Of a stretch of DNA of 64,000 nt, positions 21,852-50,004 are shown piece after piece. The notes under the pieces were generated by a model, which did no database searches, was not told the origin of the DNA, and saw only the letters and a program-made list of their open reading frames with translations. Origin of the DNA: Acidobacteriota bacterium (GTDB lineage Bacteria; Acidobacteriota; Vicinamibacteria; Fen-336; JAGNNV01); assembly GCA_032127745.1 (NCBI GenBank), contig JAQBHL010000368.1, positions 2,184-66,183 on the forward strand, written 5' to 3'. Made by a program: the position numbers and the translations under genes. Numbering within the stretch: the stretch's first letter is position 1; each line of letters starts with the position of its first letter.

Positions 21852-21879
21852 CGCCGGTCAACTATGCTCGTGCTCCTCG

Positions 21880-23935: not shown

Positions 23936-25437
23936 CTATTCGACTCGCAGTGCTTCGAGGGGGCTGATGCTGGTGGCCCGGCGCACCGGGGCCAGGCAGG
24001 CGAGAACGGCGGCGAGGGTGATCAGCACCGGTGCTACGGAGAGCGACAGGGGATTGGTTGCGGCCACTCCGTAGAGCAGCTTCCCGACCATCTGCGAGAA
24101 GGCGAGATACACCCCGAGCCCGGCCACGATGCCGATGGCCACCAGGGTTCCACCCTGGCGAAGGACGAGCTCCGCAATGCTTCGCCGGCTGGCGCCAAGA
24201 GCAATGCGCACACCGAACTCCGATGTCCTCTGGGCCACCGCGAAGGCGAGCACGCCGTAGACGCCCAGAACCGCGAGCAGGAGCGCCACCGCGCTGAAGA
24301 GCGAGATCGAAATCATGGTCGCGCGTCGAGACAAAGAGACGGTGTCGATACGTTGCTGCATCGTCTTGATGTCGAACACCGGCTGGTCCGGGTCTGCAGC
24401 CTTCACCGCCTCGCGCAGCGCCGGAGCGAGGCGCAGGGCGTCGCCCTCCGCTTTCGCCGCGATGATGAGGTTCGGCCGCGGGCTCTGGGCGTACGGGTAG
24501 TAGATGGCCTCCTTGGTCACGTCTTCATCGAGGCTTTGGAACTTGATGGGTGCTATGACTCCGACGATTGTCCACGGGTGTTCGGGGTCGCCGCGCACTA
24601 TGCGCTTGCCGAGAGGATCCTGGCCGGGCCAGTACTTGTCGGTCAGCAGCCGGTCGACCACGACCACGGGCGGTGTGGTCGCCACGTCCGCTTCCTCGAA
24701 CAGCCGCCCTCGCAGCAAGGTCATCCCGAGCGTCTTGAAGTAACCGGGATCCACCACGCGTTGCCGGGGGGGTGAGGCTCGGGCGCTCCGGCCGGCACCA
24801 CGATGTCGGGGCTCGAGTAGCTGCCGGAGCCGTTGCGGCCCGCGAACGGAATGAGGTCCGTCATCCCGGCCGAGGTAACTCCGGGGAGAGCCCGGACGCG
24901 CGAGAGAACCGCGTCCGTGAAGGCGATCCTCTTCTCCGGCACCTCGTACCGAGCGGGGGGCAGGGCGAGTTGAACCGTGATAATGCCGTTCGGGCTGAAG
25001 CCAGGGTTCTCGCGCTGAAGAGCTTCAAAGCTCTTGACCAGCAGCGACGCGGTGGAAAGCAGCATCACCACGAGGCCGATTTCGGTGACGACCAGCGCGG
25101 AGCGGAGGAACTGCGTGTGCTTTCCGCCCGACCTGCCCCGTCCTCCGACTTCCTTCAAGGTGGTGGCGGTGTCTTCCCGGGCCGCGCTCCAAGCCGGGAG
25201 CGCGCCGAAAAAGACGCCGGTCGCGAGGGCGCAAGCGAGCGTGAAGGTCACGACGGTCACGTCCAGCTCGACGCTGAAACCGCGGGGCAGAGTGGAAAGC
25301 CCCAATTGACCAAGGGCGGTGACACCCCACCAGGCGACCAGCACGCCCAGGATTCCTCCGCCCGCGAAAAGCAGGACGCTCTCGGTGAAGGCCTTCGACT
25401 TCCCGAGGGCGCGGATGGAGTAGCGGATGTCGTTCAT
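23936..25437 (-). pseudogene. Degenerate ADOP/MacB-like FtsX permease paralog (internal deletion plus frameshift)
   Basis: Two overlapping ORFs in different frames (24721-25437 and 23936-24757). The first has TM1 (DIRYSIRALGKSKAFT...) joined directly to the second half of the protein. The second carries the C-terminal FtsX domain. Confidence 0.55.
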
Positions 25438-25463
25438 GGTTTGTTCTGCCGATCGATGGAACG

Positions 25464-27887
25464 CTATTCTTCTCGAAGCGCTTCGATGGGATCGATGCCG
25501 GCGGCCCGTCGCGCGGGCAGCCAGCTGGCCGACAGGGCGACGAGCATCAAGGCCGCGGCCATGCCCACGAACGTGGTCGGGTCGGTGGTGGTGATCTCGT
25601 AGAGCTGGCTCTCGAGCACGCGTGTCACCCCCAGGGCGCCGAGCACTCCCAGGGCCACGCCCGCCCCGGCCAGTCTGCCTCCGTCGCGCAGGATCCTGGC
25701 CAGAACCTGGACAGCATTCGCGCCCAGGGCCATGCGAATGCCGATATCGCGGGTCTCGAGGGCCACCCGGTAGGAAACGACCCCGTAGATACCCAGGGTC
25801 GCCAGGATCAATGCCAGAGCCGCGAACAGGCCGAAGAGAAGAGTGGTGAACCGGGCCCGCACCACGGTTCCCGCCATCAGTTCCTCCATGGTCCGCGGTT
25901 CGGGCGCGGGCAGGCCGGGATCGATAGCCCAGATCTCGCGCTGCAGCGCCGGCGCCAGCAGGTGAGGATCGCCTTGCGTTCTGATGGCCAGGGTCATCAT
26001 GGGAATGGGCAGCTCGGAATGCGGCCAGTAGACCATCTCGCGAGCCGGCTGATCGAGACGCGCGTGACGGATGTCGCCGACCACGCCCAGCACCTCGCTC
26101 GCGGTGTTTGGATTCCTCATGTCGATGATCAGCTTCTCGCCGATGGGATCGCGGCCGGCGAAATGCTTGCGCGCCAGCATCTCATTGATAATCACGACAT
26201 CCCGCTTCTCCTTCTGTTCCTCGGGAGAGAAGGCCCTTCCGCGCAGGACAGGAATCTTCATGGTCGAGAAGTAGTCCGCGGCGACCGGGCGCACATCGGC
26301 CACCGGGGCATCGCCGGCGGGAACGGACCGGCCCACGATCTGAAAATCGGTCGCGGCTCCTGGACCCGCGAAGGGCCCGAAGACACTCCCGCTGGCCGCG
26401 ATCACGCCGGGCCGGGCCTTGATCCTGGCCAGCAGGTCCTCATAGAAGCGTTGAATCCGCGCGTCGTCACTGTAGGTGGAGCGAGGGAGGATGATCTTCG
26501 CGGTCAGGATATGGCTGGCGTCGAAACCGGGACTGGTGGAGACGAGGCGATCGAAGCTGCGCACGAGCAGGCCGGCGCCGATCAACACCATCAAGGCGAC
26601 CGCGACCTGTGCGGCCACGAACGTCTGTCCCAGCCTTCGGCCGCTCGCCGATGTCGCCCCCCGGCTTCCTTCCTTGAGCGCCTCGGCAAGATGCGGCTTC
26701 GAGGCCACCAGCGCGGGGATCAGGCCAAAGAGGAGGCCGGTGAGCAGGGAAAGGGCGATGGTGAAGCCGAAAACGCGGGCGTCGAGGCCGATGAAGTCAG
26801 CGGGAAGGAGATCCTTTGGCATCAAGGCCTGGAGGGACCTGAGACCAAAGCGGCCCAGGGCCAGTCCAAAGGCGCCTCCGAGAAGGGCAAGCATGAGGTT
26901 CTCGATCAGCAGAGCCTTGATGAGCCGGGCTCGTGACGCACCCAGCGCCGCGCGCACCGTGAACTCGCGGGCCCGCGCGGACGCGCGCACGAGTTGCAGG
27001 TTGGCTACGTTGGCGCAGGCGATGAGCAGGATCAAACCCACCGCGCCGAAGACGATGAGCAGGGCGGGCCGGATGTCGCCGGTGAACTGCTGGCGCAATG
27101 GGACGAGATTGACCGTCCAGTCCTGGTTGAAGTCCTGGTACTGTTTTTCCAGGCTGGAGGCGATGGTGGACATTTCCGCGCGAGCCTGGTCAAGGGTCAC
27201 TCCGGCCTTGAGCCCGCCCAGCACGGCCATGTAGCGGCCCCGTCGAACCCGGCTCGCGGCGTCGAATCGAGCCTGGACCCAGACGTCGGCCGGACTCGAA
27301 TTGAAGGAGGCCTCCTTGACGTAGAAGCCGAAGTCCTCGGGCAGCACGCCCACCACATTGGCCGGGGTTCCGCTGAGGGTGATCTTTTTCCCGAGCACCG
27401 CTGGATCGCCCCCGAACTGCTTCTGCCAGAACTTGTGGGTGAGGACGACGGAGAGCGCGCTCTCCGGCTTTTCATCGTCTTCGCTCAGCAGCCGTCCCAA
27501 TTGCGGCTGGGCTCCGAGCAGGGTGAAGAGGTTCGGGGTGGCGCCCACGGCCAGAACCTCCACCGGGTTCCCCTCGCCGGTCAGGGTGAACTGCCGGTCG
27601 TAGAAGCCGGCGAGGCCGGTGAAGCTGTGGCTCTGGTCCTTCCAGTCGAGGAAGTTCGCGGGCGAGACCACGTTCATGACCTTGTTGCGCTTGACGTGCT
27701 TCTCCCAGACCATGACCAGCCGATCGGGCTCAGCGTAGGGGAGGTCGCGCAGCAGGACGTCGTTGATCACGCTGAAGATCGCGGTGTTGGCGCCGATCCC
27801 GAGAGCGAGCGTCAGTACGGCGGCGAGGGTATACCAAGGAGACTTCCGCAAGGACCGGAGGGCGTTCGTGACATCGGTGCTCAGCAT
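25464..27887 (-). CDS. ABC transporter permease, duplicated FtsX/MacB-like (ADOP family)
   Basis: 807 aa. N-terminal TM ([28 protein letters not shown]), two periplasmic MacB-like domains and two FtsX 4-TM modules. Confidence 0.85.
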
Positions 27888-27935
27888 GGTCTGGTTCCTC
27901 TATCCCCTTTTCGCTCCCGCGGACCGAGTACGACC

Positions 27936-30410
27936 TTATTCCTCACGGAGCGCCACCATCGGATCGACCAGCGCGGCGCGCCTGGCGGGGAGGCCGCAGG
28001 CCAGGGCCGCGGTTAGAATCAGCACGAGGCCGGCGGCGAGATACGCGAGCGGATCGAGGCCCCTGACCCCGAAGAGCTGGTCCTCGATGACCCGCGACAA
28101 TGCGGTCGCCCCCACGATTCCGAGCGCGAGACCGGCAGCCACCAGTCCGCCCCCCGTCTTGAAGATCAACCAGACGGTGTCGAGCACCCGGGAACCGAGA
28201 GCGGCGCGAATCCCGAACTCGCGCCGCCTTTGCGCGACCTGGAACGACAGGAGGCCATAGAGGCCGATCGCCGACAGGAAAAGTCCGAGCGCGCCGAACA
28301 GGCTCACCATCACAAGTCCGAAGCGATCTTCGACCCGAGTGTCGTCCACCAGGCGGTCGAGGGTGTGGAAATCGTAGGACGCAATGGTGGCATCGATCCG
28401 GTCGAGCTCCGCTCGGATCTGCTTCTGCAGGCTTTCCGCCTTCACCTTGGAGTGGACCACGAAGGTGACGTCGTTCGCCAGATAGTTTGGATTCTGGGCG
28501 TAGGGAAGAAACCACATCCCGGCCAGTTCTCCGTCGGTGGGATCGGCGATGCCGTGAATGTCGGCAGCCACACCCACCACGAGGTAGGGAGGCCGCGGAT
28601 CGTCGGCCCGTCCCCGCCGGATAATCTTGCCGATCGGATCCTGGCCCGGCCAGAAGCGTTTCGCGAAGGTCTCGCTGATCACTGCCACCTTCTGCCCATC
28701 CGGACGGTCCGTCGCATCGATCGCCCGCCCTCTCAGAATGGGAATGCCCGAGTCCTTGAAATAGCCGGGAACCACCATTCGATGCGTGGTCACGAAATAG
28801 CCGCGGGCCTCGGGCGGGTGGCTGCCCTCGGGCGTGATTCCGGCCAGGTTGCGGCCGAGCTGGATCACATCGAGAGTGGTGGCGGTGGCGCTCTCGACTC
28901 CGGGCAGGGCGCGCAGCCGCTCGAGCGATTGATCGACGTAGGCGGTGCGCTCGGGGTGACCTCGGCGAAGGCGATCGGAGAAGGTCACGGTGAAGGCGAG
29001 GCGGTCCTCCGTCTCGAAACCCCATTTGAGGGCGACGAGATTCGAGAAGCTCCTGATCATCAGACCGGTACCCACCATCAGGACGACCGCAACCGCGATC
29101 TCGCCGACTACCAGGGCGCCCAGGGTGCGCTGGGTTCCCCGGTCGACGGTGGCGCCGCGGCCCGCGCCCTTGATGGCCAGCTGCAGATCATTCCTGGTTC
29201 CGCGGAGAGCGGGAATCAGGCCAAAGCCGAGGCCCACCAGCAGGGTCAGTCCCGTGGTCACGAGCAGGACCTGGCCGTCGAGGCGAACGGTGGTGTTGAA
29301 TTCGCGCATGGCGTTGCCGGTGGCATCGCTGGCCATGGGACTGAGCGCGTAGAGAGGGCCGGTGAGAGTGGCGGCGAGGATGACTCCCAGCGCGCTGCCG
29401 ACGACGGCGAGCATGAGGCTGTGGGCGAGGAAGCCCTGAAGCAGGGAAGCGCGCGACGCGCCCAGGGCGGCGCGAACGCTGGTCTCGGTGGCCCGGCTCA
29501 CCTGGCGCGCCAGCAGAAGGCTCGCGATGTTGGCGCCGGCGATCAGGAGCACGAACGCCGCCGCGGCCATGATCGCGAACATCCTGGGTCGCGAGTCGCG
29601 TACAAAGCTGTCTTGAAGGGGCGCGATCTGGGCCTGTCGCGCGTTGTTGGGGTCGGGAAACTCCCGCTGGATGTTTTCGCACAGGTCGCGCATCGCCTCG
29701 CTCGCCTGGGCGATGTTTACCCCGGGCTTCAGCCGGGCGGGCGCGTAGATATAGCGGCTTGCCGACTGCGACGGGTCGATGGTGAGAGCGATAGGCGCCC
29801 AGATCTGTGCGCGGTAGGGATGGCGGAAAGACGGCGGCATGACGCCCACGATGGTCCGCTTCGCGCCGTCGAGGGTGATGACCCGGCCGATCACATCGGG
29901 AGCGCCTCCCAAGGCTCGCTGCCAGAATCCATGGCCCACCAGAACCACGCCCGGGGCGCCCGGACCGTCCTCTTCGGCCAGAAAGTTCCGCCCGAGCATG
30001 GGCTTCACGCCGAGGACGGAGAAGAAGTTGTGGGAAACCACCGCGGCCGGGACGTACTCGGCCTCGCCTTCTCCGGTGAGGGTGTAGGTGGCCCCGGTGG
30101 CCGCGCCAATGTCGGTGAAGACCGTGTTCGATTCGCGCCAGCGCCGCCAGGTGACCGGTGACAGATTGAGCTGGGTCTCCTCCGCGCCGCTCGCGAAGTT
30201 CTCCCGCAGCCGCACCAGGCGATCGGGCTCGGTCATGGGAATCGGCCGCAGCATCACCGCGCGCGCCACCGAGAAGATGGCGGCATTGGCGCCGATCCCC
30301 AGGGCGATGATCAGGATGATCAGAAAGCTGAACCCCGGCGCCCGATGGAGCTGCCGGAAGGCCTGCTGAAGCGCGTAGAGCACACGACGAGCGTTCGCCA
30401 TGGCCGTCAT
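27936..30410 (-). CDS. ABC transporter permease, duplicated FtsX/MacB-like (ADOP family)
   Basis: 824 aa, same architecture as 25464-27887. Confidence 0.85.
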   Translation of the reverse strand: MTAMANARRVLYALQQAFRQLHRAPGFSFLIILIIALGIGANAAIFSVARAVMLRPIPMTEPDRLVRLRENFASGAEETQLNLSPVTWRRWRESNTVFTDIGAATGATYTLTGEGEAEYVPAAVVSHNFFSVLGVKPMLGRNFLAEEDGPGAPGVVLVGHGFWQRALGGAPDVIGRVITLDGAKRTIVGVMPPSFRHPYRAQIWAPIALTIDPSQSASRYIYAPARLKPGVNIAQASEAMRDLCENIQREFPDPNNARQAQIAPLQDSFVRDSRPRMFAIMAAAAFVLLIAGANIASLLLARQVSRATETSVRAALGASRASLLQGFLAHSLMLAVVGSALGVILAATLTGPLYALSPMASDATGNAMREFNTTVRLDGQVLLVTTGLTLLVGLGFGLIPALRGTRNDLQLAIKGAGRGATVDRGTQRTLGALVVGEIAVAVVLMVGTGLMIRSFSNLVALKWGFETEDRLAFTVTFSDRLRRGHPERTAYVDQSLERLRALPGVESATATTLDVIQLGRNLAGITPEGSHPPEARGYFVTTHRMVVPGYFKDSGIPILRGRAIDATDRPDGQKVAVISETFAKRFWPGQDPIGKIIRRGRADDPRPPYLVVGVAADIHGIADPTDGELAGMWFLPYAQNPNYLANDVTFVVHSKVKAESLQKQIRAELDRIDATIASYDFHTLDRLVDDTRVEDRFGLVMVSLFGALGLFLSAIGLYGLLSFQVAQRRREFGIRAALGSRVLDTVWLIFKTGGGLVAAGLALGIVGATALSRVIEDQLFGVRGLDPLAYLAAGLVLILTAALACGLPARRAALVDPMVALREE

Positions 30411-33842: not shown

Positions 33843-34484
33843 TCAATCTTCGCGGAAATCCCGGTCCGCATGTGGATGAGGGGGCATCCACTCCTCAAGA
33901 TCCACGCCGACCGCGTCGGCGATGCGATTGATGTAATTGAAGTAGCTCACGACGTGCACCGCGTCGGAGATCGCGCGGTCGTTGAAGCCGGCAGCGCGGA
34001 GCGCGTCCACATGCCCGCGGGTCATGGCACCTGGCGTTTCGGTGAGGGTTACGGCAAAGTCGAGCAGCACGCGATCGGCCGCTCGGAGGGGCGCCCGGGT
34101 CCAATCGGTCTTGATCGCTTCAACCAGTGATTCGTCGTCGACCTCGGCACGGAGGTCGTGGGCATGCGCCTCCACTCAATAGTGGCAGTGGTTGGTCTTT
34201 GACACCACCACCGCAAGCATCTCGCGCTGGGCGCGCGTGAGCGGCGACGCGCCGTGCATGAGTGTGCCGTAGAGCGCGGTCGACTGCTTCATCGCCGGCC
34301 CATTGAGGCTCTTGGCCTTGATGATCTGCCACACGCGTCCGGCGCGGGCGATGGCCGCGTCATACTCGGCGCGCACGACACCGGTGGCTTCCGCTACCGG
34401 TACGGTCTTGATCCATGCCACGGTCGTTCCTCCCTTGAATGTTCGGCGGTCCGGCTCCGGCTTCGTCAGCATCATACGGCTCAA
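33843..34484 (-). CDS. AhpD-like / carboxymuconolactone-decarboxylase-family peroxidase-related protein with in-frame TGA (candidate selenocysteine, CxxU motif)
   Basis: Two abutting same-frame ORFs (34176-34484 and 33843-34175) are separated only by TGA at 34176-34178 (minus strand). Reading through gives ...SKTNHCHY-U-VEAHAHDL..., i.e. CxxUxxxH in place of the AhpD CxxCxxxH active site. Confidence 0.6.
34151..34175 (-). other. Putative bacterial SECIS-like hairpin immediately 3' of the in-frame UGA
   Basis: The mRNA after the UGA reads GUGGAGGCGCAUGCCCACGACCUCC. GGAGG can pair with CCUCC (or GUGG with CCAC), giving a hairpin that starts 1-4 nt after the UGA. Confidence 0.3.
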
Positions 34485-34632
34485 GCTTGCGGTCTCCAGG
34501 GTCGGCTGAACTGACCACGGAGGGTACGGTGATCGGACGGCAAAGTCGCATCGGCGAGGCCTGGGCCGCGATCCTCAATGGCCATTGAACACGGTGAGAT
34601 AGGATCGGCGGCCTCTTCCGAGGAACGACTGA

Positions 34633-35133
34633 ATGAACTCAACAAGATCAAAGCTGACTGACGCTGTCAAACCGATGTCTATGATCCTGGCGGCATCCAT
34701 CGCAGTGCTGGGCTTGTCCCTCACCCTGCTTCAAGCCGCCCAGGATCATCCGGGGGCCACGGAGGAGGATGCAACGAAGTGGCCCGGATACAAGGGGGAA
34801 ATCGAGTACAAGCCCGCGGACCTGGTGATCACGTATTGGAAGGACACCGACGGAGTCGATCCAGCGAAGGCGGGATGTCATGTCGGTTATGACCAAGCGG
34901 GTAAACAGAACGGCAGGTTTTTCGCCGAAGCCTGCTTGCCGAATGGTCTCCTGGTCGAGTCCAATCCGGCGGCCGGCGTTCTCCACGGACATAAGGGTGA
35001 TATCGGTCATCCCTACACTTTCGACTGCAATGCCTGGTGTGTAGGTGTCAAGATGACCAGAGGAGGGAGTTGCAAGGCCGGGGTGCCAGCTCCCGATCCC
35101 TGCAAGACCTCAGCTATTTGTGAATGCAGGTGA
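34633..35133 (+). CDS. Secreted cysteine-rich small protein, unknown function
   Basis: 166 aa. Signal peptide/TM (MSMILAASIAVLGLSLTLLQAA) and 8 Cys in the mature part. Local GC is visibly lower (~55%) than the flanks. Confidence 0.55.
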   Translation: MNSTRSKLTDAVKPMSMILAASIAVLGLSLTLLQAAQDHPGATEEDATKWPGYKGEIEYKPADLVITYWKDTDGVDPAKAGCHVGYDQAGKQNGRFFAEACLPNGLLVESNPAAGVLHGHKGDIGHPYTFDCNAWCVGVKMTRGGSCKAGVPAPDPCKTSAICECR

Positions 35134-35162: not shown

Positions 35163-37604
35163 TCAGGGCTCGGCGAGGGTGCGGGCCGGATCGACCTGTG
35201 AGGCCCGCCATGCGGGTAAGGCACTCGCCAGGAGCGCCACCGTGACCAGCACCGATGCGGCGGCGCAAAGAATCCACGGGTCCCGGCCGGATACTCCAAT
35301 GATCATCGCTTCGAGGGCTCGCCCTTGAGCGGCCACTCCCAGACCCCCCACGATCAGGCCTGCTCCAATGGCTCGCAGACCTTGGCCCACCACCAGCCCG
35401 ATCACGTCTGTGGGCCGAGCGCCGATGGCCATGCGCACACCGAACTCCCGCGTCCTCTGGCTCACCCCGTAGGCGATAACGCCATAGATCCCGATCGCCG
35501 AGAGGGCGAGTCCCACCAAGCCGAGGGCCACCATGAGAAGGCGGTTGAAACGAGTGACCGCCGTCGAAGCCCGCACCCGCGAGGCCATGGTGGCCACATC
35601 GTAGAGGGGAAGGGAAGGACTCTCGGCCCGCAACGCGTCGCGAAACTGCGGGGTCAGGGACTCGGGATTTCCATTCGCGGCGCGCGCCACGAGCGTGATC
35701 GAACCCCCGTTCGCCTCAAATGCCCGCGCGGGGGCCTGGTCCATCGGCAAGTAGAACTCATTCAGGCCGGGTGACGTCAGGCCCCGAGCCCTCGTGTCGG
35801 CGACCACGCCGATGACCTCCTTCCACGAGGGGTCCGAATCACTTCCCTCGCAGCACGCGACTCGCTTGCCGAGCGGGCTCTCTCCCGGCCACGCAACTCG
35901 CGCCAGAGTCTCGCTCACGATCATCACCCGCGCGCCACTCCGTCGGTCGTCCGCGGTGAAGGTCCGGCCGATTCGCAACCGCACTCGCATGGTCTCGAGA
36001 AACCCTGGAGTCACGAGCTGCATCCGCCCGCCCAGGCGATTCTGGGGGTTCGGATCTGCCCCCTCGACGCGAAGCCCGTAACCGACATAGCCGATCATCG
36101 GAGGCCGCGTGGAGGCCGCGGCTTCGACGACACCCGGGCTGCCGGAGAGGGTTGAGACAATCCGGGAGATCGCCGCGGCGGGCTTCTCTTCCCCCGGGTA
36201 GACCTTCGCGGGCAGGGCGACACGCGCGGAAAGAAGATTGTCGGGGTCGAACCCCGGCGAGACCCGGCTCAGGTTGTCGTCGCTGCGGATGAGCAGGCCC
36301 GCGCCCATGAGAAGCATCAAGGTCAGCGCCACCTCGGCGGCCACAAAGGCCTGCCGGACGCGATCGCGCGCCCCCCCGGTCGAGCCGCGGGAAGCCTGGG
36401 CGGCTCCAGACGAAAGCCCGGCGCGAGATTCACGGAGGGCGGGCACGAGGCCGGCTAAGAGAGTGGCGAGTAGTGCTACCAGCGACGCCGCCATCAGCAC
36501 GGGCGTATTGATCTGGGCCTCCGCGAGGCGCGGAACGTCCGCCGGCCCTTGCGCCACGAAGATCGGAACCGCGATGGCGGCCAGGATCAACCCCGCTCCG
36601 GCGCCGAGGGCGCACAGCACCAGAGCTTCCGTCATCAACTGGCGGGCGATCCGCAGCCGGCTGGCTCCGAGGGCGGCCCGGACCGAGATCTCGCGCGAGC
36701 GAAGGGCGCCTCTCGCCATCAGCAGGCTCGCCACATTGACGCAGGAGATGAGGAAGACGAGAGAGACGGCGCCGAGCAGGATGTAGAGCCGTTGTTTGTA
36801 GTCGCCTACGACGCGGTCGAGCAGCCGAACGCTCACGAACACCCGGCCCTCGTTCTCGCGAGGCGCCGCCTCGCCGGCTGCGCGATCGATCGCCTTGATG
36901 TCCTCTCCGAGCTGAGGGTCGCTCACGCCAGGCTTGATCAAGGCGGTGATTCCCAGATAGTGCGCGTCGAAGCTCCGCTCGGCGGTGAAGGCGATGGGCG
37001 TCCAGATGTCTGTTTCCTCTTCGGGAATCTGGAATTCGCGCGGCATCACTCCCACGACGACATGGGGAACGTCGCTCAACTGGATCGTCCGGCCCACCAG
37101 GGTTGGATCGGCGCCGAATCGCCGCTCGAAGAGGCGCTCACTGATGAGGGCCATCTTGGGCTGGCCGGGCGCGTCTTCGGCCTCGGTGAACACCCGGCCC
37201 AACTTCGCCGGAGTGCCCAGCACGTTGAAGTAGCTGGCGGTCACGCGCGCCCCGACGACGCGCTCCGGCTCGCCTTCGTCCGCGAGATTGAAAGTAGCTC
37301 CCATTCTGGCGGCCACGCTTTCCAGTGTTCGTGAAGTCTCCTTGATCACGAAATAATCGCCGATGGAGACGGCGCCTGGGTCCCCGTGCCAGGTGGTATA
37401 GATATCGACGAGGCGCTCCGAGTGCGGAAAAGGGAGCGGGGTGAGCACCACTGCGTTCAATACGGTGAACAAGGTGGTGGTGGCGCCTATTCCGAGGGCG
37501 AGGGTAAGGGCGGCGACCACGGCGAAGGACCGATGCCGTCTCAACTGGCGTAGAGCGAAACGAGCGTCCTGAGCGAAGTCCGCGAAGGGAATGGGTGGGG
37601 TCAT
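35163..37604 (-). CDS. ABC transporter permease, duplicated FtsX/MacB-like (ADOP family)
   Basis: 813 aa, same architecture as the other ADOP permeases (N-terminal [31 protein letters not shown]). Confidence 0.85.
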   Translation of the reverse strand: MTPPIPFADFAQDARFALRQLRRHRSFAVVAALTLALGIGATTTLFTVLNAVVLTPLPFPHSERLVDIYTTWHGDPGAVSIGDYFVIKETSRTLESVAARMGATFNLADEGEPERVVGARVTASYFNVLGTPAKLGRVFTEAEDAPGQPKMALISERLFERRFGADPTLVGRTIQLSDVPHVVVGVMPREFQIPEEETDIWTPIAFTAERSFDAHYLGITALIKPGVSDPQLGEDIKAIDRAAGEAAPRENEGRVFVSVRLLDRVVGDYKQRLYILLGAVSLVFLISCVNVASLLMARGALRSREISVRAALGASRLRIARQLMTEALVLCALGAGAGLILAAIAVPIFVAQGPADVPRLAEAQINTPVLMAASLVALLATLLAGLVPALRESRAGLSSGAAQASRGSTGGARDRVRQAFVAAEVALTLMLLMGAGLLIRSDDNLSRVSPGFDPDNLLSARVALPAKVYPGEEKPAAAISRIVSTLSGSPGVVEAAASTRPPMIGYVGYGLRVEGADPNPQNRLGGRMQLVTPGFLETMRVRLRIGRTFTADDRRSGARVMIVSETLARVAWPGESPLGKRVACCEGSDSDPSWKEVIGVVADTRARGLTSPGLNEFYLPMDQAPARAFEANGGSITLVARAANGNPESLTPQFRDALRAESPSLPLYDVATMASRVRASTAVTRFNRLLMVALGLVGLALSAIGIYGVIAYGVSQRTREFGVRMAIGARPTDVIGLVVGQGLRAIGAGLIVGGLGVAAQGRALEAMIIGVSGRDPWILCAAASVLVTVALLASALPAWRASQVDPARTLAEP

Positions 37605-39067: not shown

Positions 39068-40321
39068 ATGGACATCGCACGCCCTGACCTTGCGATCAAA
39101 CGCAGGAAGCGGAACATTCAGCTCGGCATCGGCGCCGCCGTGCTCCTGCTGAGCGCCACCTGGGGCCTGTCCCAGCTCAAGCCCGCCGCCCCGAGCGTGG
39201 ACCGCGGAACGCTCTTCCTCGACAAGGTGAAGCGTGGCGAAATGCTGCTGCAGGTTCGCGGCCTGGGCACGCTGGTGCCCGAGGAAGTTCGCCTGATCCC
39301 CGCCCTCACCGAGGCCCGGGTTGAGCGCATCGTGGCTCTACCCGGGACCATCGTGAAGCCGGACACGGTCATCCTGGAGATGTCGAACCCCGACCTGGAG
39401 CTCCAGGTCCTCGATGCCGAGTCTCAGCTGCGTGAAGCTGAGGCGCGGCTGATCGAGGCGCGGTCGCGCATTGAAGTCTCGCGGCTGGACCAGCAGGCGA
39501 CCGCGGCGCGCGTGGCTTCCGAAGCCCGGCAGGCTCGGCTTCGGGCCGACGCCGACGTGGAACTGGCGGCCCAGGGCCTGGTCGCCGGCTTGAACGCGAA
39601 GATATCGAAGTCGGCGGCCGACGAACTCGAGAGTCGGGCCAAGATCGAGCAGGAGCGGCTCAAGCTCTCCACTTCGTCCATTGACGCGCAAATTGCGGTG
39701 CCCCGCGCCACCGTCGAACAAAGGCTCGGCACCGCCCGCCTTCGCCGCGCCCAGCGCGACGCGCTGAGAGTCCGCGCCGGTATCACCGGCGTGCTGCAGT
39801 CGGTGGCGGTCGAGGTCGGTCAGCGGGTGAGTCCGGGCACGAATCTGGCTCGCGTGGTGGAGCCAACCAAGCTCAAGGCGGTTATCCGAGTGGCCGAGAC
39901 TCAAGCCAAGGACCTCGCCATCGGCCTGCCCTGCGACATCGACACCCGGAACGGCATCGTGAAGGGCAAGGTCACGCGCATCGATCCGGCGGCTCAGAAC
40001 GGAACCGTGGCGGTGGACGTGGCCCTCGAGGGCGAGTTGCCCAGAGGTGCGCGTCCCGATCTGACTGTCGATGGAACCATCGAGCTGGCCCGCCTTGAAG
40101 ACACTCTCTATGTGGGCCGGCCCGCCCAAGGGGCAGGGGAGAGCACCATCAGCCTGTTCCGCGTCGATCCGGCAACCGGCGAGGCCTACCGGGTGCGAGT
40201 TCGTCTCGGCCGGGCTTCGGTGAACAGTGTTCAGATCCTTGAAGGCCTGGAACTGGGTGATGAAGTGGTTCTCTCCGACGCTTCGGCCTGGGATGCCTTC
40301 GACCGAATTCGATTGAAGTGA
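39068..40321 (+). CDS. Efflux transporter periplasmic adaptor subunit (MacA/HlyD family)
   Basis: N-terminal TM, long coiled-coil hairpin, lipoyl and beta-barrel blocks (VVEPTKLKAVIRVAE...GKVTRIDPAAQNGTVAVDV). Confidence 0.85.
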   Translation: MDIARPDLAIKRRKRNIQLGIGAAVLLLSATWGLSQLKPAAPSVDRGTLFLDKVKRGEMLLQVRGLGTLVPEEVRLIPALTEARVERIVALPGTIVKPDTVILEMSNPDLELQVLDAESQLREAEARLIEARSRIEVSRLDQQATAARVASEARQARLRADADVELAAQGLVAGLNAKISKSAADELESRAKIEQERLKLSTSSIDAQIAVPRATVEQRLGTARLRRAQRDALRVRAGITGVLQSVAVEVGQRVSPGTNLARVVEPTKLKAVIRVAETQAKDLAIGLPCDIDTRNGIVKGKVTRIDPAAQNGTVAVDVALEGELPRGARPDLTVDGTIELARLEDTLYVGRPAQGAGESTISLFRVDPATGEAYRVRVRLGRASVNSVQILEGLELGDEVVLSDASAWDAFDRIRLK

Positions 40322-40457
40322 GTAGCCGAATCTTCCGACCAAACGTCAAAGAAATGCGGAACATAAGACGCGCGGCCGACGTTGAACCGCGAAAGAGCAT
40401 CTCTCGTTTTTGAAAAGCACCCCCCTGAAAAGACCCCCCCCAGGAGCACAGAGAACC

Positions 40458-41174
40458 ATGACCGATTCCCCTTCCTTGATCGACCTCTCCGGCGTCACCA
40501 AGGTCTTCCTGACCGATGAAGTCGAGACCCACGCTCTTTCGGGCATCCACCTCAAGATCGAGAAGGGCGAGTTCGTGGCCATCGCCGGGCCTTCGGGCTG
40601 CGGCAAGTCGACCCTGCTCTCCATCCTCGGCCTGCTCGACTCGCCGACTGGCGGCCAGTACATCCTGAACGGCCAGCCCGTGGCCAAGCTCACCGCCGCC
40701 GATCGGGCCCGGGTCCGGAACCGTGAGATTGGCTTCATCTTCCAGAGCTTCAACCTCATCGGCGATCTCACCGTCTTCGAGAATGTCGAACTCCCGCTGA
40801 CCTATCGCGGCACCAGTTCGGCGGAGCGGAAGAAGCGTGCGATGGACTCGCTCGAGCGCGTGGGCATGGGACATCGGGCCAAGCATCTTCCCAGCCAGCT
40901 CTCCGGCGGTCAGCAGCAGAGAGTCGCGGTGGCGAGAGCCCTCGTGGGCGCGCCCGCTGTCCTCCTCGCCGACGAGCCGACGGGTAATCTCGACTCGAAG
41001 AACGGCGATGCGGTGATGGCATTGATGACCGAGCTTCATCAGGGCGGCGCCACCATCGTCATGGTCACCCATGATCCCCGGTTCGCGCGCTATGCCGACC
41101 GCACCATCCACATCTTCGACGGCCGCATCGTTGAAGAGGGCTCGATTCCCACCGACAGCGCCCAGATCGCGTAA
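40458..41174 (+). CDS. ABC transporter ATP-binding protein (MacB/LolD-like ATPase)
   Basis: Walker A GPSGCGKST, signature LSGGQQQRVAVARAL, Walker B LLADEPTGNLD. The stop overlaps the next gene start (TAATG). Confidence 0.85.
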   Translation: MTDSPSLIDLSGVTKVFLTDEVETHALSGIHLKIEKGEFVAIAGPSGCGKSTLLSILGLLDSPTGGQYILNGQPVAKLTAADRARVRNREIGFIFQSFNLIGDLTVFENVELPLTYRGTSSAERKKRAMDSLERVGMGHRAKHLPSQLSGGQQQRVAVARALVGAPAVLLADEPTGNLDSKNGDAVMALMTELHQGGATIVMVTHDPRFARYADRTIHIFDGRIVEEGSIPTDSAQIA

Positions 41175-43672
41175 TGGGCGGCCTGCTCGGTGACGTGCGC
41201 CTCGCCCTGAGGCGCGTCGCGGGAAGTCCAGGCCTGACCTTTCTGATCGTCGCCACGTTCGCCCTCGGTATCGAGGCGAACACCGCGGTCTTTTCGCTCT
41301 TCGACCAGGTGCTTCTGCGCGCGATGCCGGTGAAGGATCCGGGGAGTCTCGTCATCATCCACACCCCGGGACCGAACCAGGGGATGTTCGAGTCAAACAA
41401 GAACTTCCCGGTTCCGATCTCGTACCCGATGTTCACGGACTTCCGGGACAAGACGGATGTCTTCGATGGCGTGCTTGCTTATATGCCGACCACCGTGTTC
41501 TTTGGGGTGGACAACAACACCGAACGGGTGCGCGCCGATCTCGTCTCCGGCACCTACTTTGGCGTTCTGGGTCTCCAACCGGTCCTTGGCCGTCTCCTTT
41601 CGCCGGCCGACGACGAGACCCCGGGGGCGCATCCGGTTGTGGTCATCTCCCACAGTTACTGGCAGCGGCGATTCGCCTCCGACCCCGGAGTGATCGGGAA
41701 GACGGTTCGAATCAACTCGTCGAGCATGGAGATCGTGGGCGTGGCGCCCGCGGGTTTCCGGGGCATGGAGGTGGGGCAGGAGTCTCTCGCCTTCGTGCCG
41801 ACCTCGATGAAACGAGAAGTCACGCCGACCTGGGATGAGCTGCAATCCCGGCGGGCGATGTGGCTGACCCCCATGGCCCGGTTGAGGCCAGGCGTCACCA
41901 TGGAGCAGGCCCAGGCCAGGGCCAACGTCCTCTATCACCAGATCCTGGCCGAGGAGGTCAAGGCGATCGCGCGGGGCTCCGAGAGCTTCAAGGAGCGATT
42001 CCTCAAGAAGAACCTGCAGTTCTTCCCCGGCGGGACCGGCGCCTCGGCGCTGCGCGAGCAAACGGAGGCTCCTTTCCGGATCCTGCTTGCCACCGCCTCG
42101 CTGGTTCTTTTCATCGGCTGCCTCAACATCGCGAATCTCCTGCTCACCCGCGCGACCAGGCGCCGAAAGGAAATCGCGGTGCGATTGTCGCTTGGGGGCA
42201 CCAGGGCACGCTTGATACGGGAGCTGATCGTCGAGGGAGCCGTGCTCGCCACCCTCGGTCTGATCGCGGGCCTGGCCGTCGCTATCGTGGGCGGGAAACT
42301 GCTGGTCGACACCCTTCCCGATCCCGATGCGCGCGCGCTTTTGACTTTTTCCCTGGACGCCCGGGTGCTCGGCTTTGCCGCCCTTCTGGCCTTCCTGGGC
42401 GTGGTGATCTCGACCGTCGTTCCGGCTCTTCAGGGAACGCGAGTGGCTCTGACTCCCTCCTTGCGTGAAGGAAGCGGTGCCACCGCGGCGGGTGGGCGGA
42501 AGACGCGGAACGCGCTCGTGGTCGGCCAGCTCGCCCTGTCTCTGGCTCTGTTGGTCGGGGCCGGGCTGCTCGCCCGGTCGCTCTTCAATCTCGCGAGCCG
42601 TCCCGTGGGTTACCGCACCGAAAAGATCGCCACGTTCAGTCTCAATCCGGCGCTTGCCGGCTACGACGAGGCTCAAAAGCGTTCGCTCTTCGAACGCGTC
42701 AACGCTGAGCTCGTGGCTCAACCCGACGTGGCCTCGGTGGGCATGTCCGACAATGCTCTGCTCACCAACAACGTTTCCATGAGCACCATCAAGCTTCCTG
42801 GATACACCCCGGCCGAGGAAGAGAACATGAACCCGCTGTGGATGGAGGTAAGTCCGGCCTTCTTCACCACCATTGAAGCGCCACTGATGGCCGGGCGGGG
42901 ATTCGACGACCGGGACGGACCGGACGCGCCCAAGGTTGCCATTGTGAACGAATCCTTCGCCAGGCACTACTTCAAGGACGAGAGCCCCGTGGGCCGGAGG
43001 TTCGGTTCGAGACGAGCCGAGGACTACGAGTTCGAGATCATCGGGGTGGTGAAGGACTTCCGGCAGACCGCGGTCAACGAGGAGGAGGGCCGTCGCCAGG
43101 TCTTCTTCCCCTTCGCCCAATCCCGGGTTTTGAGCTCGATGACCTACTACGTGCGGGCCCGCGCCTCCGAGACCGCGTTGTTCGAGTCCATCCGGTCCAT
43201 CGCGAGGCGGATCGATCCTTCCGTGCCCCCGACCGACGTCGCCACCCTGGCCCAGACCCGCGACGATTCGATGGCCAGCGAGCGGACCATGGCCTACCTG
43301 GCCAGCGTTTTTGGCGCGCTCGCCCTGCTTCTCGCCGCCTTGGGCCTCTACGGCGTCTTGAGCCACGGAGTGACTCAGCGATTCCGGGAGATCGGGGTGC
43401 GGGTGGCCATGGGCGCCCAGAGCGGCGACATCGTGAGACTGATCCTCGGACAGGCTGGTCGATTGCTTCTGGCTGGACTGCTTCTGGGTGTCCCGGTCGC
43501 GGCGGGCGTGGCCGCGCTGGTCAGGTCTCAACTGTTCGGGGTTCCCGCTTTCGATGCCGCGGCTCTCTCCATCGCGCTCGTGGTCCTGGCCGCCTCCGCC
43601 TTCCTGGCCGCCTACCTTCCGGCCGCCCGCGCCGCGCGGGTCGATCCTTCTCAGACTCTCCGGTACGAGTAG
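41174..43672 (+). CDS. ABC transporter permease, duplicated FtsX/MacB-like (ADOP family)
   Basis: 832 aa, same architecture as the other ADOP permeases. Confidence 0.85.
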   Translation: MGGLLGDVRLALRRVAGSPGLTFLIVATFALGIEANTAVFSLFDQVLLRAMPVKDPGSLVIIHTPGPNQGMFESNKNFPVPISYPMFTDFRDKTDVFDGVLAYMPTTVFFGVDNNTERVRADLVSGTYFGVLGLQPVLGRLLSPADDETPGAHPVVVISHSYWQRRFASDPGVIGKTVRINSSSMEIVGVAPAGFRGMEVGQESLAFVPTSMKREVTPTWDELQSRRAMWLTPMARLRPGVTMEQAQARANVLYHQILAEEVKAIARGSESFKERFLKKNLQFFPGGTGASALREQTEAPFRILLATASLVLFIGCLNIANLLLTRATRRRKEIAVRLSLGGTRARLIRELIVEGAVLATLGLIAGLAVAIVGGKLLVDTLPDPDARALLTFSLDARVLGFAALLAFLGVVISTVVPALQGTRVALTPSLREGSGATAAGGRKTRNALVVGQLALSLALLVGAGLLARSLFNLASRPVGYRTEKIATFSLNPALAGYDEAQKRSLFERVNAELVAQPDVASVGMSDNALLTNNVSMSTIKLPGYTPAEEENMNPLWMEVSPAFFTTIEAPLMAGRGFDDRDGPDAPKVAIVNESFARHYFKDESPVGRRFGSRRAEDYEFEIIGVVKDFRQTAVNEEEGRRQVFFPFAQSRVLSSMTYYVRARASETALFESIRSIARRIDPSVPPTDVATLAQTRDDSMASERTMAYLASVFGALALLLAALGLYGVLSHGVTQRFREIGVRVAMGAQSGDIVRLILGQAGRLLLAGLLLGVPVAAGVAALVRSQLFGVPAFDAAALSIALVVLAASAFLAAYLPAARAARVDPSQTLRYE

Positions 43673-43744
43673 AGGCCGGCGATTATGAGAGCGGAAGCAG
43701 TCTAGGGGCGCAGGGCGACGTTCATTAGCGAGGAGGGAAACGCC

Positions 43745-46144
43745 ATGTCAGGCTTGTTCTCAGAACTGAAGGTCGGTCTCCGGCAGCTTCGGACGCACCC
43801 CGGTCATTCCGCGGTGGTGATCGTGACCCTCGGCCTTGCTCTTGGCCTGTCGGCGGTCATCTTCAGCTTCGTGACCTTCTTTCTGCTTCGGCCCCTTCCG
43901 GTGCGGGACGAGGCGACTGTGGTTCTGGCACGCGGTGCGCATCCACAACAGAACGGAAATCGTCCGCGTATTTCCTACCCCGACTTTCTCGATTTCAAGG
44001 CACAGACCCAGACCGTCGAAGAACTCGTGGCCCTATCGCGTGGCACAGGCGCCCTGACGGGCCAAGGGGATGCCCGGCGGGTGTCCGTCGCCAACGCGAG
44101 CGAGGGCCTGTTTCGAGTCTGGGACCTTGCCGTGATTCACGGGCGCCGATTCCTAGCGGCTGAGGACGCGCCCGGCGAAGCACTGGTCATGCTGCTTGCG
44201 CACGGGTTCTGGGAACGCGAGTTCGGTTCGGACCCCGGGTTGGTGGGGAAGACGCTCACTTTGGACGGGCGGACCGGCACGGTCGTCGGCATCCTGTCTC
44301 CGGCCATAGAATTCGGTGGCTTTTCGGAGATCGACCTTTGGATCCCGCTCGCTCAGTCGAATCCGTCGATGGATCGTCAACGTCGCGACATGATGGTCAC
44401 TGGACGCCGCAAGCCCGGGGTGACGACCGAACAGGTCAGTTCGGAGTTCGCCACGATTGCTGCGCGACTGCAACAGGAGCATCCGGAGACCAATCGCGAC
44501 TGGACCGCGAATGCCGTCCCCCTTCGCGCCGCGCTCTATGGAACCAATACGCAAGTCATCCTCGCGCTGCTGGTGGTGGGCGTGTGCCTGGTCTTCGCGG
44601 TGGCCTGCGCCAACGTGGCCGGGATCATGCTGGCGCGCGCCACGACGCGGGAGCGTGAGATGGCGCTTCGGATGAGCCTTGGGGCTGAACGCAGCCAGAT
44701 CGCGCGGCAGCTTGTGGTGGAAGGGGCGGTGCTCTCGTTCCTGGGCGCCGTTTTGGGCCTCGTTCTCGCCCAGGTGGCGATCCAATTGATGAGGGCGGTC
44801 GCCTTCGAGCAGTTCTACCAGCTGGTTACGATCGATGGGACGGTTCTGGCCTTCTCGGCTGGTCTGGCCCTCGCCGCACCGATTCTCTTCGGTCTCGCTC
44901 CGGCCCTGCAGCTCGCACGCCGGGAGCTCTCGAACGTGCTCCGCGATTCAGGGGCGAGTGCCGGCACATCCGGCCGGGTAGGCCGGAGTCGACGCAGCCT
45001 GGTGGTGACGCAGATCGGCCTCGCCACGGCCCTGATGATGGTGTCGGGTCTTGCGGTGCGCACGGCGATGGCACTTCGGAACTTCGACTACGGGTACAAC
45101 ATCGCCGATCTGCTGAGCGTTCGCATCGATCTGACAGAGGCTCGCTACAAGTCGCCCGAGGACCTCCGCCTTCGCGTGAGCGGGCTGGTGGATGCATTGC
45201 TCCGCCAGCCTCAGGTTCGCAGCGTGGCTGTTGGAACCGAACTGCCGGTGTTGGACCGCGTTCGTCAGATGGCTTTCAAGCGAGAAGGGTCGACGGAAGG
45301 CGAGTCGAAGATTGCTTTGGTCACCGCGGCCACTCCTGGGTACTTCCGTGCCCTGGGAATCGGAGTCAGGCAGGGTCGCGAGTTTGCGGACGCGGACACT
45401 CCGGAGGCTCCCGCGGTGGCCCTCGTCAGTCAGGCCCTGGTTGCTCGAGACTTCGGCGCGGAGGATCCGCGGGGCCGACGTATTCAGGTCGGCGGGCCGG
45501 AGACGCCCTGGATGGAGATCGTGGGCGTGGTGGCCGACGTCGCGAATCCAGACCTCGGCAACCCGCCGACGCCACAGGTCTACGTGCCTTTCGCACAACG
45601 CCCCGAACGTTCCATCGTCCTGCTCGTGCGGACGGCGAATCCGGCGCCGGTACTGGTTTTCTTCCGGGAGACCATGAGGACGCTCGATCCCGATCAGCCG
45701 CTCTACGACACGAAGACGGTTGAGCAAGTGGCGTGGGAGGAGTTGGCGAGCAACCGAATCATCACCGGCCTGTTCGTGGCTCTTGGGAGTGTCGCGCTGG
45801 CTCTGGCCACGGTTGGACTCTATGGACTGACTGCTTTCCTGGTCGCGCAGCGGTCCCGGGAAATCGGTGTACGGATGGCGCTGGGTGCGTCCGTCCGTGA
45901 CGTGCTCAGCATGGTCCTGTCTCAAGGAGCAAGGCTCACGCTGACCGGCCTGACCCTGGGTCTCGCAATCGGCCTCTTGCTGGGCCGCGGCATGTCGAGC
46001 ATTCTTGTGGAGGTAAAGCCTTGGGATCCGGTGACGCTCCTGGCAACGCTCGCCACATTAGGGTGTGCCGCCATCGTGGCTCACTGGGCCCCGGCGCGTC
46101 GGGCCGCGTTGCTCAACCCTATCGACGCCCTTCGTCACGACTAG
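43745..46144 (+). CDS. ABC transporter permease, duplicated FtsX/MacB-like (ADOP family)
   Basis: 799 aa. Confidence 0.85.
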   Translation: MSGLFSELKVGLRQLRTHPGHSAVVIVTLGLALGLSAVIFSFVTFFLLRPLPVRDEATVVLARGAHPQQNGNRPRISYPDFLDFKAQTQTVEELVALSRGTGALTGQGDARRVSVANASEGLFRVWDLAVIHGRRFLAAEDAPGEALVMLLAHGFWEREFGSDPGLVGKTLTLDGRTGTVVGILSPAIEFGGFSEIDLWIPLAQSNPSMDRQRRDMMVTGRRKPGVTTEQVSSEFATIAARLQQEHPETNRDWTANAVPLRAALYGTNTQVILALLVVGVCLVFAVACANVAGIMLARATTREREMALRMSLGAERSQIARQLVVEGAVLSFLGAVLGLVLAQVAIQLMRAVAFEQFYQLVTIDGTVLAFSAGLALAAPILFGLAPALQLARRELSNVLRDSGASAGTSGRVGRSRRSLVVTQIGLATALMMVSGLAVRTAMALRNFDYGYNIADLLSVRIDLTEARYKSPEDLRLRVSGLVDALLRQPQVRSVAVGTELPVLDRVRQMAFKREGSTEGESKIALVTAATPGYFRALGIGVRQGREFADADTPEAPAVALVSQALVARDFGAEDPRGRRIQVGGPETPWMEIVGVVADVANPDLGNPPTPQVYVPFAQRPERSIVLLVRTANPAPVLVFFRETMRTLDPDQPLYDTKTVEQVAWEELASNRIITGLFVALGSVALALATVGLYGLTAFLVAQRSREIGVRMALGASVRDVLSMVLSQGARLTLTGLTLGLAIGLLLGRGMSSILVEVKPWDPVTLLATLATLGCAAIVAHWAPARRAALLNPIDALRHD

Positions 46145-46161
46145 ACAACGAGGGCTCTGGA

Positions 46162-47190
46162 ATGCGCCACTTTCTCTCTGAGCTCAAACTCGCGATGAGG
46201 ACGTGGTCGCATCGACCGGGTCTCGCCCTGGCCGCCGTCGTGACCCCCTCCCTGGGACTCGGGTCCGCCACCGCGATCTGGAGCCTGCTGCAGGCGGTTC
46301 TCATAGCACCCCTGCCCTACGCGGAGGGAGCGCGCCGCGGTGGTCTTCAACCCATGGAGCGGCTTCGAGAAGACCTGGGTCAACCCGGGGGAGATGCTCG
46401 CTTTGAAAGGCGGGGCGTCGTCCATCGAAGACGTGGCCTACTCGTTTTCGCGGTGCTACCGGATTTCGGACTCGCGAAAGCGCGTTTGCTGGACGGCCTC
46501 TCCCGCGCCAGTCGCCGCACGGGCGGATCTCCCCGACAGCGCTTCGTCCGGCGGGGACTGGTGGCGGCGCAACTCGCCTTTGCGGTCCTGCTTTGCGTCG
46601 GTGGACTATTGATCGCAGTCACGGTGCGCGAACTCGGAAGCATTGATATCGGATTCAAGCCCGATGGAGTGCTGACCGCTCGGGTGAGTCTCCCCGCGGC
46701 CACCCAACCCGACGCGGAGAAGACGACGGCGTACCACACCCGGCTTCTGGACGGTGTCCGGGCCCTCCCGGATGTGAAGGCGGCCGGCCTTCTTCGGAAT
46801 CTTCCATTGGGAGAGTCGATCGGTGATTTTGGGGTCCAGGTCGAGGGACCGAATGGGCAAGAGCACGGACAGGCGGACTGGCAAGCGTCGTCCGACGGGA
46901 CCATCGAGACGCTGGGCCTGCGGCTCTTGGCCGGTCGTGATTTCCTGCCGAGTGACATTGCGACCGCGCCGCAGGTGGCACTCATCAATGAGGCCATGGC
47001 TCGTCGCTACTGGCCAGGGCTCGACCCGGTGCGGGTCACGTCTTCGCTCCGTGCCCTGACCCAAAGGCTGGATCCGGTCGTCTTCATCGCCTCCGGAGCA
47101 TTTCTGCTTCTCGTCGCGGCGGTGGGCGCGGCACTTCCGGCTCGACGCGCCTGCGGCATCGATCCGGCCGAGGCTCTGCGCGATGAATAG
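46162..47190 (+). pseudogene. Truncated ADOP permease paralog (TM1 joined to second periplasmic domain and last TM; first FtsX module missing)
   Basis: MRHFLSELKLAMRTWSHRPGLALAAV... N-terminus, ~60 residues of poor sequence, then the homologous C-terminal third ending GIDPAEALRDE. Confidence 0.5.
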
Positions 47191-47247
47191 CGATCTCGAT
47201 GCCAATCTGCCCTGCCCCCCGTCTCATTCCCGAACCAGGAGTCCACG

Positions 47248-49832: not shown

Positions 49833-49997
49833 ATGTTGAGCCGTCTCACGGACGACGCCACCGCAGCGGTGCGGGCGTTGCGACGCAACCCTCGCCTGAC
49901 CCTGGTCATGGTGTTGACCCTTGGCCTGGGTCTGGGCGCAAACACGACGATCTTCTCAGCCATCGACCATCACCTACCAGGCGCACTGGAGACATAG
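49833..49997 (+). pseudogene. N-terminal remnant (54 codons) of another ADOP permease paralog
   Basis: MLSRLTDDATAAVRALRRNPRLTLVMVLTLGLGLGANTTIFSAIDHHLPGALET* is the characteristic permease N-terminus/TM1, ending in a stop. GGAGGAG lies upstream. Not in the ORF track (<60 aa). Confidence 0.4.
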
Positions 49998-50004
49998 ACA
50001 TCTC

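Follow-up and report, generated by a model that had tools for sequence, protein, structure and literature searches.

A probable AhpD-like selenoprotein gene, split by an in-frame TGA codon, in an acidobacterial contig

Introduction

A 64,000-nucleotide (64 kb) stretch of DNA from a Vicinamibacteria acidobacterium (assembly GCA_032127745.1, contig JAQBHL010000368.1, positions 2,184 to 66,183), referred to here as the window, carries on its minus strand a gene of the AhpD-like family with a TGA codon inside its reading frame. In all probability this TGA is a true codon for selenocysteine (Sec, U), at which ordinary gene callers split the gene in two. A recoding signature is present at the locus: the aligned codon column is a Sec/Cys column, a selenocysteine insertion sequence (SECIS) hairpin follows the UGA, the gene is under purifying selection, and orthologs are linked to sel genes. 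Together with family membership, these features support the original prediction, made from the letters of the window alone, of a candidate selenoprotein with a CxxU motif.

The AhpD-like family (COG2128, CxxU) was among the findings of a 2005 study of the Sargasso Sea, which described it as a new family of selenoproteins with 27 sequences (Zhang, Fomenko and Gladyshev; PMC1088965). In the Global Ocean Sampling (GOS) data, 'AhpD-like 1' was the fourth most abundant family, with 299 Sec sequences (PMC2398784), and a 2026 review of the prokaryotic selenoproteome lists an 'AhpD-like protein, CxxU' family under the model TIGR01926 (PMC13188914). The family is also browsable in BSepDB. These sources confirm that AhpD-like proteins are an established selenoprotein family, as was stated when the candidate was proposed. 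The published sets consist mostly of marine metagenome reads, with a few Clostridia and Deltaproteobacteria genomes, whereas the copy in the window belongs to a Vicinamibacteria-like acidobacterium. Acidobacteria were credited with selenoproteins by 2006, and a search of the literature on Sec in Vicinamibacteria found nothing relevant.

Gene structure and protein family

Two minus-strand open reading frames (ORFs), at 34176-34484 and 33843-34175, lie in one frame and are parted by the TGA at 34178-34176 alone, so that both the ORF coordinates and the translation agree with the initial description of two abutting ORFs with only a TGA between them. Around this codon the read-through translation is ...AVVVSKTNHCHY*VEAHAHDLRAEV..., and the segment that contains the motif reads SKTNHCHY[TGA]VEAHAHDL. 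The full product had been expected to start at TTG 34484 and to comprise about 213 residues, which is not borne out by the orthologs. Their N-termini read M/V-AWI[KR]..., with a first codon that corresponds to GTG 34421-34419 of the window, full-length tblastn matches to them span residues 1-192, and in-frame stops stand just 5' of the homologous start in four loci (L001, L078, L083 and L159). TTG 34484 falls within a possible promoter match (34498-34471), and any transcript that this match would give starts downstream of it; the consensus scan that suggested this promoter saw two sites, against 0.1 expected in shuffles. With GTG 34421-34419 as the start, the product therefore has 192 residues, and the recoded position is 82.

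Membership of the carboxymuconolactone decarboxylase (CMD)/AhpD family, assigned from the first reading of the sequence, is confirmed by profile scores, all computed with Cys placed at position 82. The protein scores 145.3 bits against TIGR01926, the 'peroxidase-related enzyme' model of NCBIfam (cut-off 81.8; profile positions 1-173 of 178), and 51.4 bits against Pfam CMD, PF02627 (gathering score 23), and belongs to both. It is a member of neither TIGR00777, the model of AhpD proper (29.3 bits, cut-off 191.95), nor NF041238, the 'AhpD_rel_CFYUT' (seleno)protein model (69.3 bits against 175). With the latter it shares a related CMD-type domain and the CxxU motif, but the cut-off is missed and the match is confined to the C-terminal half of the profile, at positions 151-339 of 357. 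The predicted product is a thiol/selenol oxidoreductase of TIGR01926/COG2128 with the CMD fold.

The nearest solved structures, with E-values of 3e-28 to 4e-24, are the Cys-form proteins 2pfx, 3c1l and 2oyo, and the AhpD structure 6k40. Entries 2pfx and 2oyo are each described as an 'uncharacterized peroxidase-related protein' and 3c1l as Mlr4105, a 'putative antioxidant defense protein'; all four are alignable over about 150 residues and, unlike the window protein with its predicted Sec, carry Cys. The motif N-x-C-x-Y-C-x-x-A-H of these homologs matches N77-H-C79-H-Y81-U82-V-E-A-H86 column by column, and the TGA column is Cys in 2pfx and 3c1l. Homologs in the Protein Data Bank at E about 1e-28 thus already fix the predicted fold and the alignment of the motif. 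The placement of the TGA at the second Cys of a CxxCxxxH motif, as originally proposed, is therefore correct (C79-H-Y-U82-x-x-x-H86).

The active site also has the residue spacing of the AhpD proton relay, E-12-C-x-Y-[C/U]-xxx-H, formed here by E67, C79, Y81, U82 and H86. The same spacing is found in Mycobacterium tuberculosis AhpD (Glu118/Cys130/His132/Cys133/His137) and in PA0269 (Glu36/Cys48/Tyr50/Cys51/His55) (PMC3141380). The window protein resembles M. tuberculosis AhpD in its CMD fold and in the relay pattern Glu-12-Cys-x-[His/Tyr]-Cys-xxx-His; it differs in having Tyr81 in place of His132, as in PA0269, and in failing TIGR00777, and it is not an ortholog. Nor was an ahpC gene found nearby among the window genes scanned.

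A Sec/Cys codon column across orthologs

To place the TGA in its family, orthologous loci were fetched, 76 from contigs of one genome per species and 80 from metagenomes, and the codon at the aligned column was read. In a first tally, which took in the window and the 76 genome loci, there were 54 TGA, 13 TGT and 10 TGC. In the wide tally, restricted to the 141 sequences whose motif was unambiguous (140 loci and the window), the column holds TGA 113 times, TGT 17 times, TGC 11 times, and TAA or TAG not once. As only TGA or Cys codons occupy the column, the pattern is far beyond chance, and the check that had been suggested, an alignment to Cys homologs, pairs the TGA with Cys in 28 of the 141 sequences. 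The Sec forms belong, among others, to Acidobacteriota (Vicinamibacteria, Pyrinomonadaceae and Terriglobia), Planctomycetota, Gemmatimonadota and Armatimonadota. Homologs of Rhodobacterales and Rhodospirillales, which are more distant, are Cys forms, and so are three Binataceae loci that were counted in the first tally only. Several of the fetched orthologs carry a CFYUT motif (L009-L012 and L017). Of the 113 TGA loci, 110 pass a filter on the relay residues (E at -15, give or take one residue, C/S/T at -3, Y/F at -1 and H at +4). In each of the 110 the residues are E(-15), C(-3) and Y(-1) without deviation, a result that the filter makes partly circular.

This column bears on the possibility of a true split gene, in which translation would stop at the UGA and restart at the GUG next to it (34175-34173), so that two separate chains would be made and then assemble. 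The GUG that follows the UGA in the window is a possible start, and a near-identical public contig is annotated as two ORFs, of 98 and 110 amino acids (aa). Most orthologs, however, have a non-start codon after the TGA (ACC, ATC, CTG or similar), no Shine-Dalgarno sequence precedes the GUG, and a plain stop would not demand TGA every time. The division would also cut the CxxC motif inside the active-site helix. Of all the explanations considered, this is the least probable.

Two further homologs carry variants of the motif. P0010, a 52%-identical ortholog found in two independent assemblies (L160, 3001-3582; L161, 638-1219), has AGA (Arg) at the Sec/Cys site, one substitution away from TGA, and keeps a SECIS-type hairpin, GACCUCC-GGGCU-GAGGUC; it may represent a recent inactivation or change of function. 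P0016 (L162, 511-3570), with about 50% identity, has a TxxC motif, without the first Cys and with Cys at the Sec position. Its gene stands directly after genes for a 2-oxoacid dehydrogenase E1-beta subunit and a lipoyl-E2 protein, a context which hints that lipoyl proteins are possibly the reductant, as for M. tuberculosis AhpD.

A SECIS hairpin downstream of the UGA

A stable SECIS-like fold 3' of the UGA, one of the expectations set out for a selenoprotein, was found. In both the minimum free energy (MFE) and the centroid fold of 76 nt starting just before the UGA, the sequence CGACCUC-CGUGCC-GAGGUCG forms a hairpin of 7 bp at +21..+40 (with the U of UGA as 1), which corresponds to window positions 34158-34139. 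Bacterial SECIS (bSECIS) criteria were taken from the legend of Fig. 2 in PMC13188914. The energy of the hairpin is -11.6 kcal/mol (criterion at most -7.5), the upper stem has 7 bp (4-16), the apical loop CGUGCC has 6 nt (3-9 nt) with G at position 2 and U after it (a G among the first two nucleotides), and the UGA-to-loop spacing is 24 nt (16-37 nt). The hairpin at 34139-34158 is thus in agreement with every published bSECIS criterion. It resembles the canonical SECIS (E. coli fdhF; model of Zhang and Gladyshev, 2005) in being a coding-region hairpin shortly 3' of the UGA, with a small apical loop that has G then U at positions 2-3 and a spacing within 16-37 nt; its sequence is unrelated to that of fdhF, and its register, +21..+40 in the clade of the window, is +14..+30 in most other clades.

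Conservation supports the same helix. Its pairing is kept at 97% across 19 distinct sequences of the clade, compared with 21-46% for controls in which the 3' arm was shifted by 1-3 columns, and two pairs show compensatory change (for example GAUCUC/GAGAUC in L088). The stem encodes Asp89-Leu90 and Glu93-Val94, and synonymous sites within it are frozen, with CUC at Leu90 in 19 of 19 sequences and GUC at Val94 in 16 of 17, although each of these codons accounts for only 38% of usage for its amino acid in the genes of the window. Outside the stem, the codons of Val83, Leu99, Val100 and Glu101 vary freely. The frozen synonymous sites therefore indicate a constraint at the RNA level, beyond the demands of the protein sequence. 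Across the family, the local hairpin is also stronger in Sec forms (median energy -8.9 kcal/mol) than in Cys forms (-5.5 kcal/mol), with a Mann-Whitney p of 2e-9 that is uncorrected for phylogeny.

The hairpin first proposed as the SECIS was a different one, formed by GGAGG and CCUCC. It does exist in the window, with arms at 34173-34169 (+6..+10) and 34155-34151 (+24..+28), but as the SECIS it was rejected: in the clade it is 79% paired and shows no compensatory change, and its best inner pairs leave a loop about 9 nt from the UGA that lacks a G among its first two nucleotides. It competes with the conserved 34158-34139 hairpin for the same CCUCC bases. A permissive Rfam scan of the locus returned chance-level matches only.

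Most other Sec-form clades carry the hairpin ACGCAGA-GUU-UCUGCGU in the +14..+30 register, and over 72 distinct sequences of this class the GUU loop is invariant and the pairs are kept in 89-100%. The register thus differs among clades of one family, as is seen when L009-L012 and L085 are compared with window positions 34139-34158. Conserved codons for Asp-Leu-Arg (GAxCUCCGU) form the 3' arm in L009-L012 (CACGGGGA-GGA-UCUCCGUG) and the 5' arm in the clade of the window. That the SECIS moved within one protein family, with the Asp-Leu-Arg codons switching arms, is better supported than the reading with a suppressor tRNA considered below.

Purifying selection before and after the UGA

Comparison of the window with its relative L001 gives 20 synonymous and 4 non-synonymous codon differences upstream of the UGA, and 20 and 12 downstream. 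The downstream synonymous excess recurs in most of eight comparisons, including those with the two closest relatives; the exceptions are L004, with 27 synonymous and 42 non-synonymous differences, and L083, which is about even (30 and 29). Codon differences from the relatives are thus mainly synonymous 5' as well as 3' of the UGA, and the 3' half is a maintained coding sequence. TGA also terminates about half of the predicted genes of the window, including the AhpD-like gene itself; it is therefore an ordinary stop here, which excludes a reassigned genetic code.

These results can be set against the alternative offered with the original prediction, a nonsense pseudogene arising by a Cys-to-stop change, or a relic whose genome no longer decodes Sec, of which only an 81-residue fragment would be made. 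Sec machinery was not seen in the window, which also holds a frameshift-broken gene, so damage or assembly errors do occur. However, the TGA is kept in 113 loci of several phyla with no TAA or TAG, the downstream synonymous excess appears even when the relatives compared are 91% identical in protein sequence, conservation of the SECIS stem extends to frozen synonymous sites, and the same sequence recurs in near-identical relatives that were assembled independently (L157 and L158, two further assemblies). A pseudogene or relic is extremely unlikely; conservation, the TGA-only pattern and purifying selection exclude a nonsense pseudogene for practical purposes.

Selenocysteine machinery and the identity of the inserted residue

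In three Armatimonadota loci (L041, L043 and L049), the TGA-containing ortholog adjoins fdhD, tRNA-Sec, selD and selB, the last three within about 3 kb. The tRNA-Sec has the anticodon UCA according to ARAGORN and scores 74-75 bits against RF01852 (gathering score 47), selB was identified by its SelB winged-helix domains, and the SelD-type AIRS protein itself contains an in-frame TGA at the known position (...SSAG*AAKLGPG...). The compact fdhD, tRNA-Sec, selD, selB cluster lies at 3562-6567 in L043 and occurs in the other two as well. On the opposite side of the AhpD-like gene, L043 encodes a TIR plus AAA_35 protein (768-2852). A selD gene adjoins the ortholog in L119 too.

Several observations weigh against the Sec assignment. 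The source genome would have to encode Sec machinery, none of which lies within the 64 kb window or in the flanks fetched for the closest relatives: tRNA-Sec was not found in the window by ARAGORN or Rfam (only a tRNA-Leu was), a Pfam scan showed no SelA, SelB or SelD among its 50 predicted ORFs, and tblastn with SelD, SelB and FdhD of L043 gave no match in the window or in L001-L008. A composition scan that recovered the AhpD-like site as a control detected no other TGA-interrupted coding region in the window; the four other TGA sites that it returned are antisense to long genes or at their true ends. Covariation of the SECIS in the clade is modest, with two compensatory cells and most stem pairs invariant. 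Selenium incorporation at codon 82 is itself a prediction from the sequence signature.

Because the inserted amino acid cannot be told from sequence alone, an opal suppressor could in principle recode the UGA to Cys or another residue, by means of a selC*-type tRNA-Cys with a SelB paralog or of an acidobacterial allo-tRNA. Opal suppressors of this kind, tRNA-Sec-like tRNA-Cys species, are documented, as are allo-tRNAs of Acidobacteria that are possibly nonsense suppressors (PMC5389517, Mukai et al.). The selC* type was reported from Firmicutes, Thermodesulfobacteria, Nitrospirae and Proteobacteria, not from Acidobacteria (PMC5389517), while canonical tRNA-Sec, selD and selB adjoin orthologs of the AhpD-like gene, and the hairpin fits the canonical SelB-type SECIS model. 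Recoding by a suppressor is therefore judged very unlikely. If it were true, the large 'selenoprotein' clade of soil phyla would be a conditional Cys/Sec or stop/sense switch.

Proposed mechanism

With the UGA read as Sec, the hairpin at 34158-34139, 24 nt past codon 82, would be bound by SelB carrying Sec-tRNA(Sec), and Sec would be inserted at codon 82 in place of termination. The resulting Sec82, at the second position of the CxxC motif, would lie beside the Glu67/Tyr81/His86 proton relay. The second Cys of M. tuberculosis AhpD (Cys133) is reportedly the attacking nucleophile in mutagenesis work. By homology to AhpD, Sec82 would most likely be the attacking nucleophile here, with an oxidized peroxiredoxin-type protein or a hydroperoxide as its partner. 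Cys79 would then act as the resolving residue, so that Sec82 may cycle between the selenol and a Cys79-Sec82 selenenylsulfide.

Annotation and significance

The window gene shares with the AhpD-like selenoprotein family a passing TIGR01926 score, the CxxU motif, Cys-form homologs and a SECIS directly 3' of the UGA; it agrees with the family on every sequence-level criterion, with no difference in kind. It is an unannotated addition to a selenoprotein family established since 2005, a result to be expected for this family, and reveals no new mechanism.

Public databases represent such genes in misleading ways. Many of the close homologs found by protein search are about 110 aa long and match no more than the C-terminal 57% of the query, the product to be expected from ORF callers that stop at a UGA-Sec codon. 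One Vicinamibacteria relative is annotated as a 110-aa 'peroxidase', and the near-identical contig annotated as ORFs of 98 and 110 aa belongs to assembly GCA_032124695.1 (L157). Public metagenome proteins that appear to be 'full-length' (P0001, P0007, P0009 and P0039) have Trp at the Sec site, and one such cluster has 583 members. For P0001, the only one whose codon was checked, the DNA at the Trp site (L159, 104-682) is TGA; its Trp is therefore an artifact of translation with genetic code 4. Trp as a third residue type at the Sec site, a candidate until then, was rejected on this result.

The genes of this clade thus circulate in three wrong public forms: 110-aa fragments, two abutting ORFs, and full-length proteins with a spurious Trp from code 4. 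In Planctomycetota, Gemmatimonadota, Armatimonadota and Acidobacteriota, Vicinamibacteria among them, this clade of TIGR01926 proteins consists overwhelmingly of Sec forms. Its recognition identifies these lineages of soil and sediment as users of selenium and puts right an annotation error that recurs.

Features of the locus

The coordinates of the gene and its elements are collected in Table 1.

Table 1. Features of the AhpD-like locus, in window coordinates
Feature	Position	Strand	Remarks
AhpD-like selenoprotein gene (predicted)	33843..34421	minus	192 codons including UGA-Sec82, plus terminal stop
GTG start codon	34419..34421	minus	homologous ATG or GTG opens orthologs
Shine-Dalgarno sequence GGGAGG	34429..34434	minus	7 nt upstream of GTG; GGAGG-type motifs likewise placed in orthologs
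Possible sigma-70-like promoter match, TGGAGA-16-TATGAT	34471..34498	minus	consensus scan; tentative
UGA codon 82 (U82 of C79-H-Y-U82)	34176..34178	minus	read as selenocysteine
Active-site segment	34164..34223	minus	E67 34221-34223, C79 34185-34187, Y81, U82, H86 34164-34166
SECIS hairpin, 7-bp stem CGACCUC/GAGGUCG, loop CGUGCC	34139..34158	minus	fold and conservation
Terminal TGA stop of the AhpD-like gene	33843..33845	minus	

Neighborhood and other genes of the window

A conserved neighborhood was sought as a clue to function, and none was found beyond near-identical contigs, which alone share the GGDEF-PilZ gene, the gene of a 166-aa Cys-rich protein and the MacB-type permeases. The 166-aa ORF (34633-35133, plus strand) is divergent from the AhpD-like gene; its product is hydrophobic at the N-terminus, rich in Cys at the C-terminus and without a match in Pfam, and the ORF was found in L157 and L158 only. 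At least seven paralogs of MacB_PCD/FtsX-type ABC permeases, of about 800 aa each, occupy 23936-30410, 35163-37604 and 41174-49740, accompanied by genes for ABC ATPases (40410-41174 and 49921-50724) and for an HlyD-type adaptor (39068-40321). Expansion of MacB-type permeases is typical of Acidobacteriota.

The frameshift-broken gene of the window (58410-59597, minus strand) encodes a serine hydrolase of the beta-lactamase family that carries a DUF3471 tail, and is divided among three ORFs, at 59181-59597, 58898-59176 and 58410-58919. Successive ORFs are in different frames; the breaks are frameshifts (a pseudogene or assembly errors) and not TGA read-through. At 21685-23925 (plus strand), a 746-aa fusion joins a queuine tRNA-ribosyltransferase (TGT) to a Methyltransf_30 (MnmC-type) domain. 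Finally, a 355-aa predicted ORF without Pfam match (56931-57998, plus strand) overlaps the tRNA-Leu(CAA) gene at 57027-57113 and is probably spurious.

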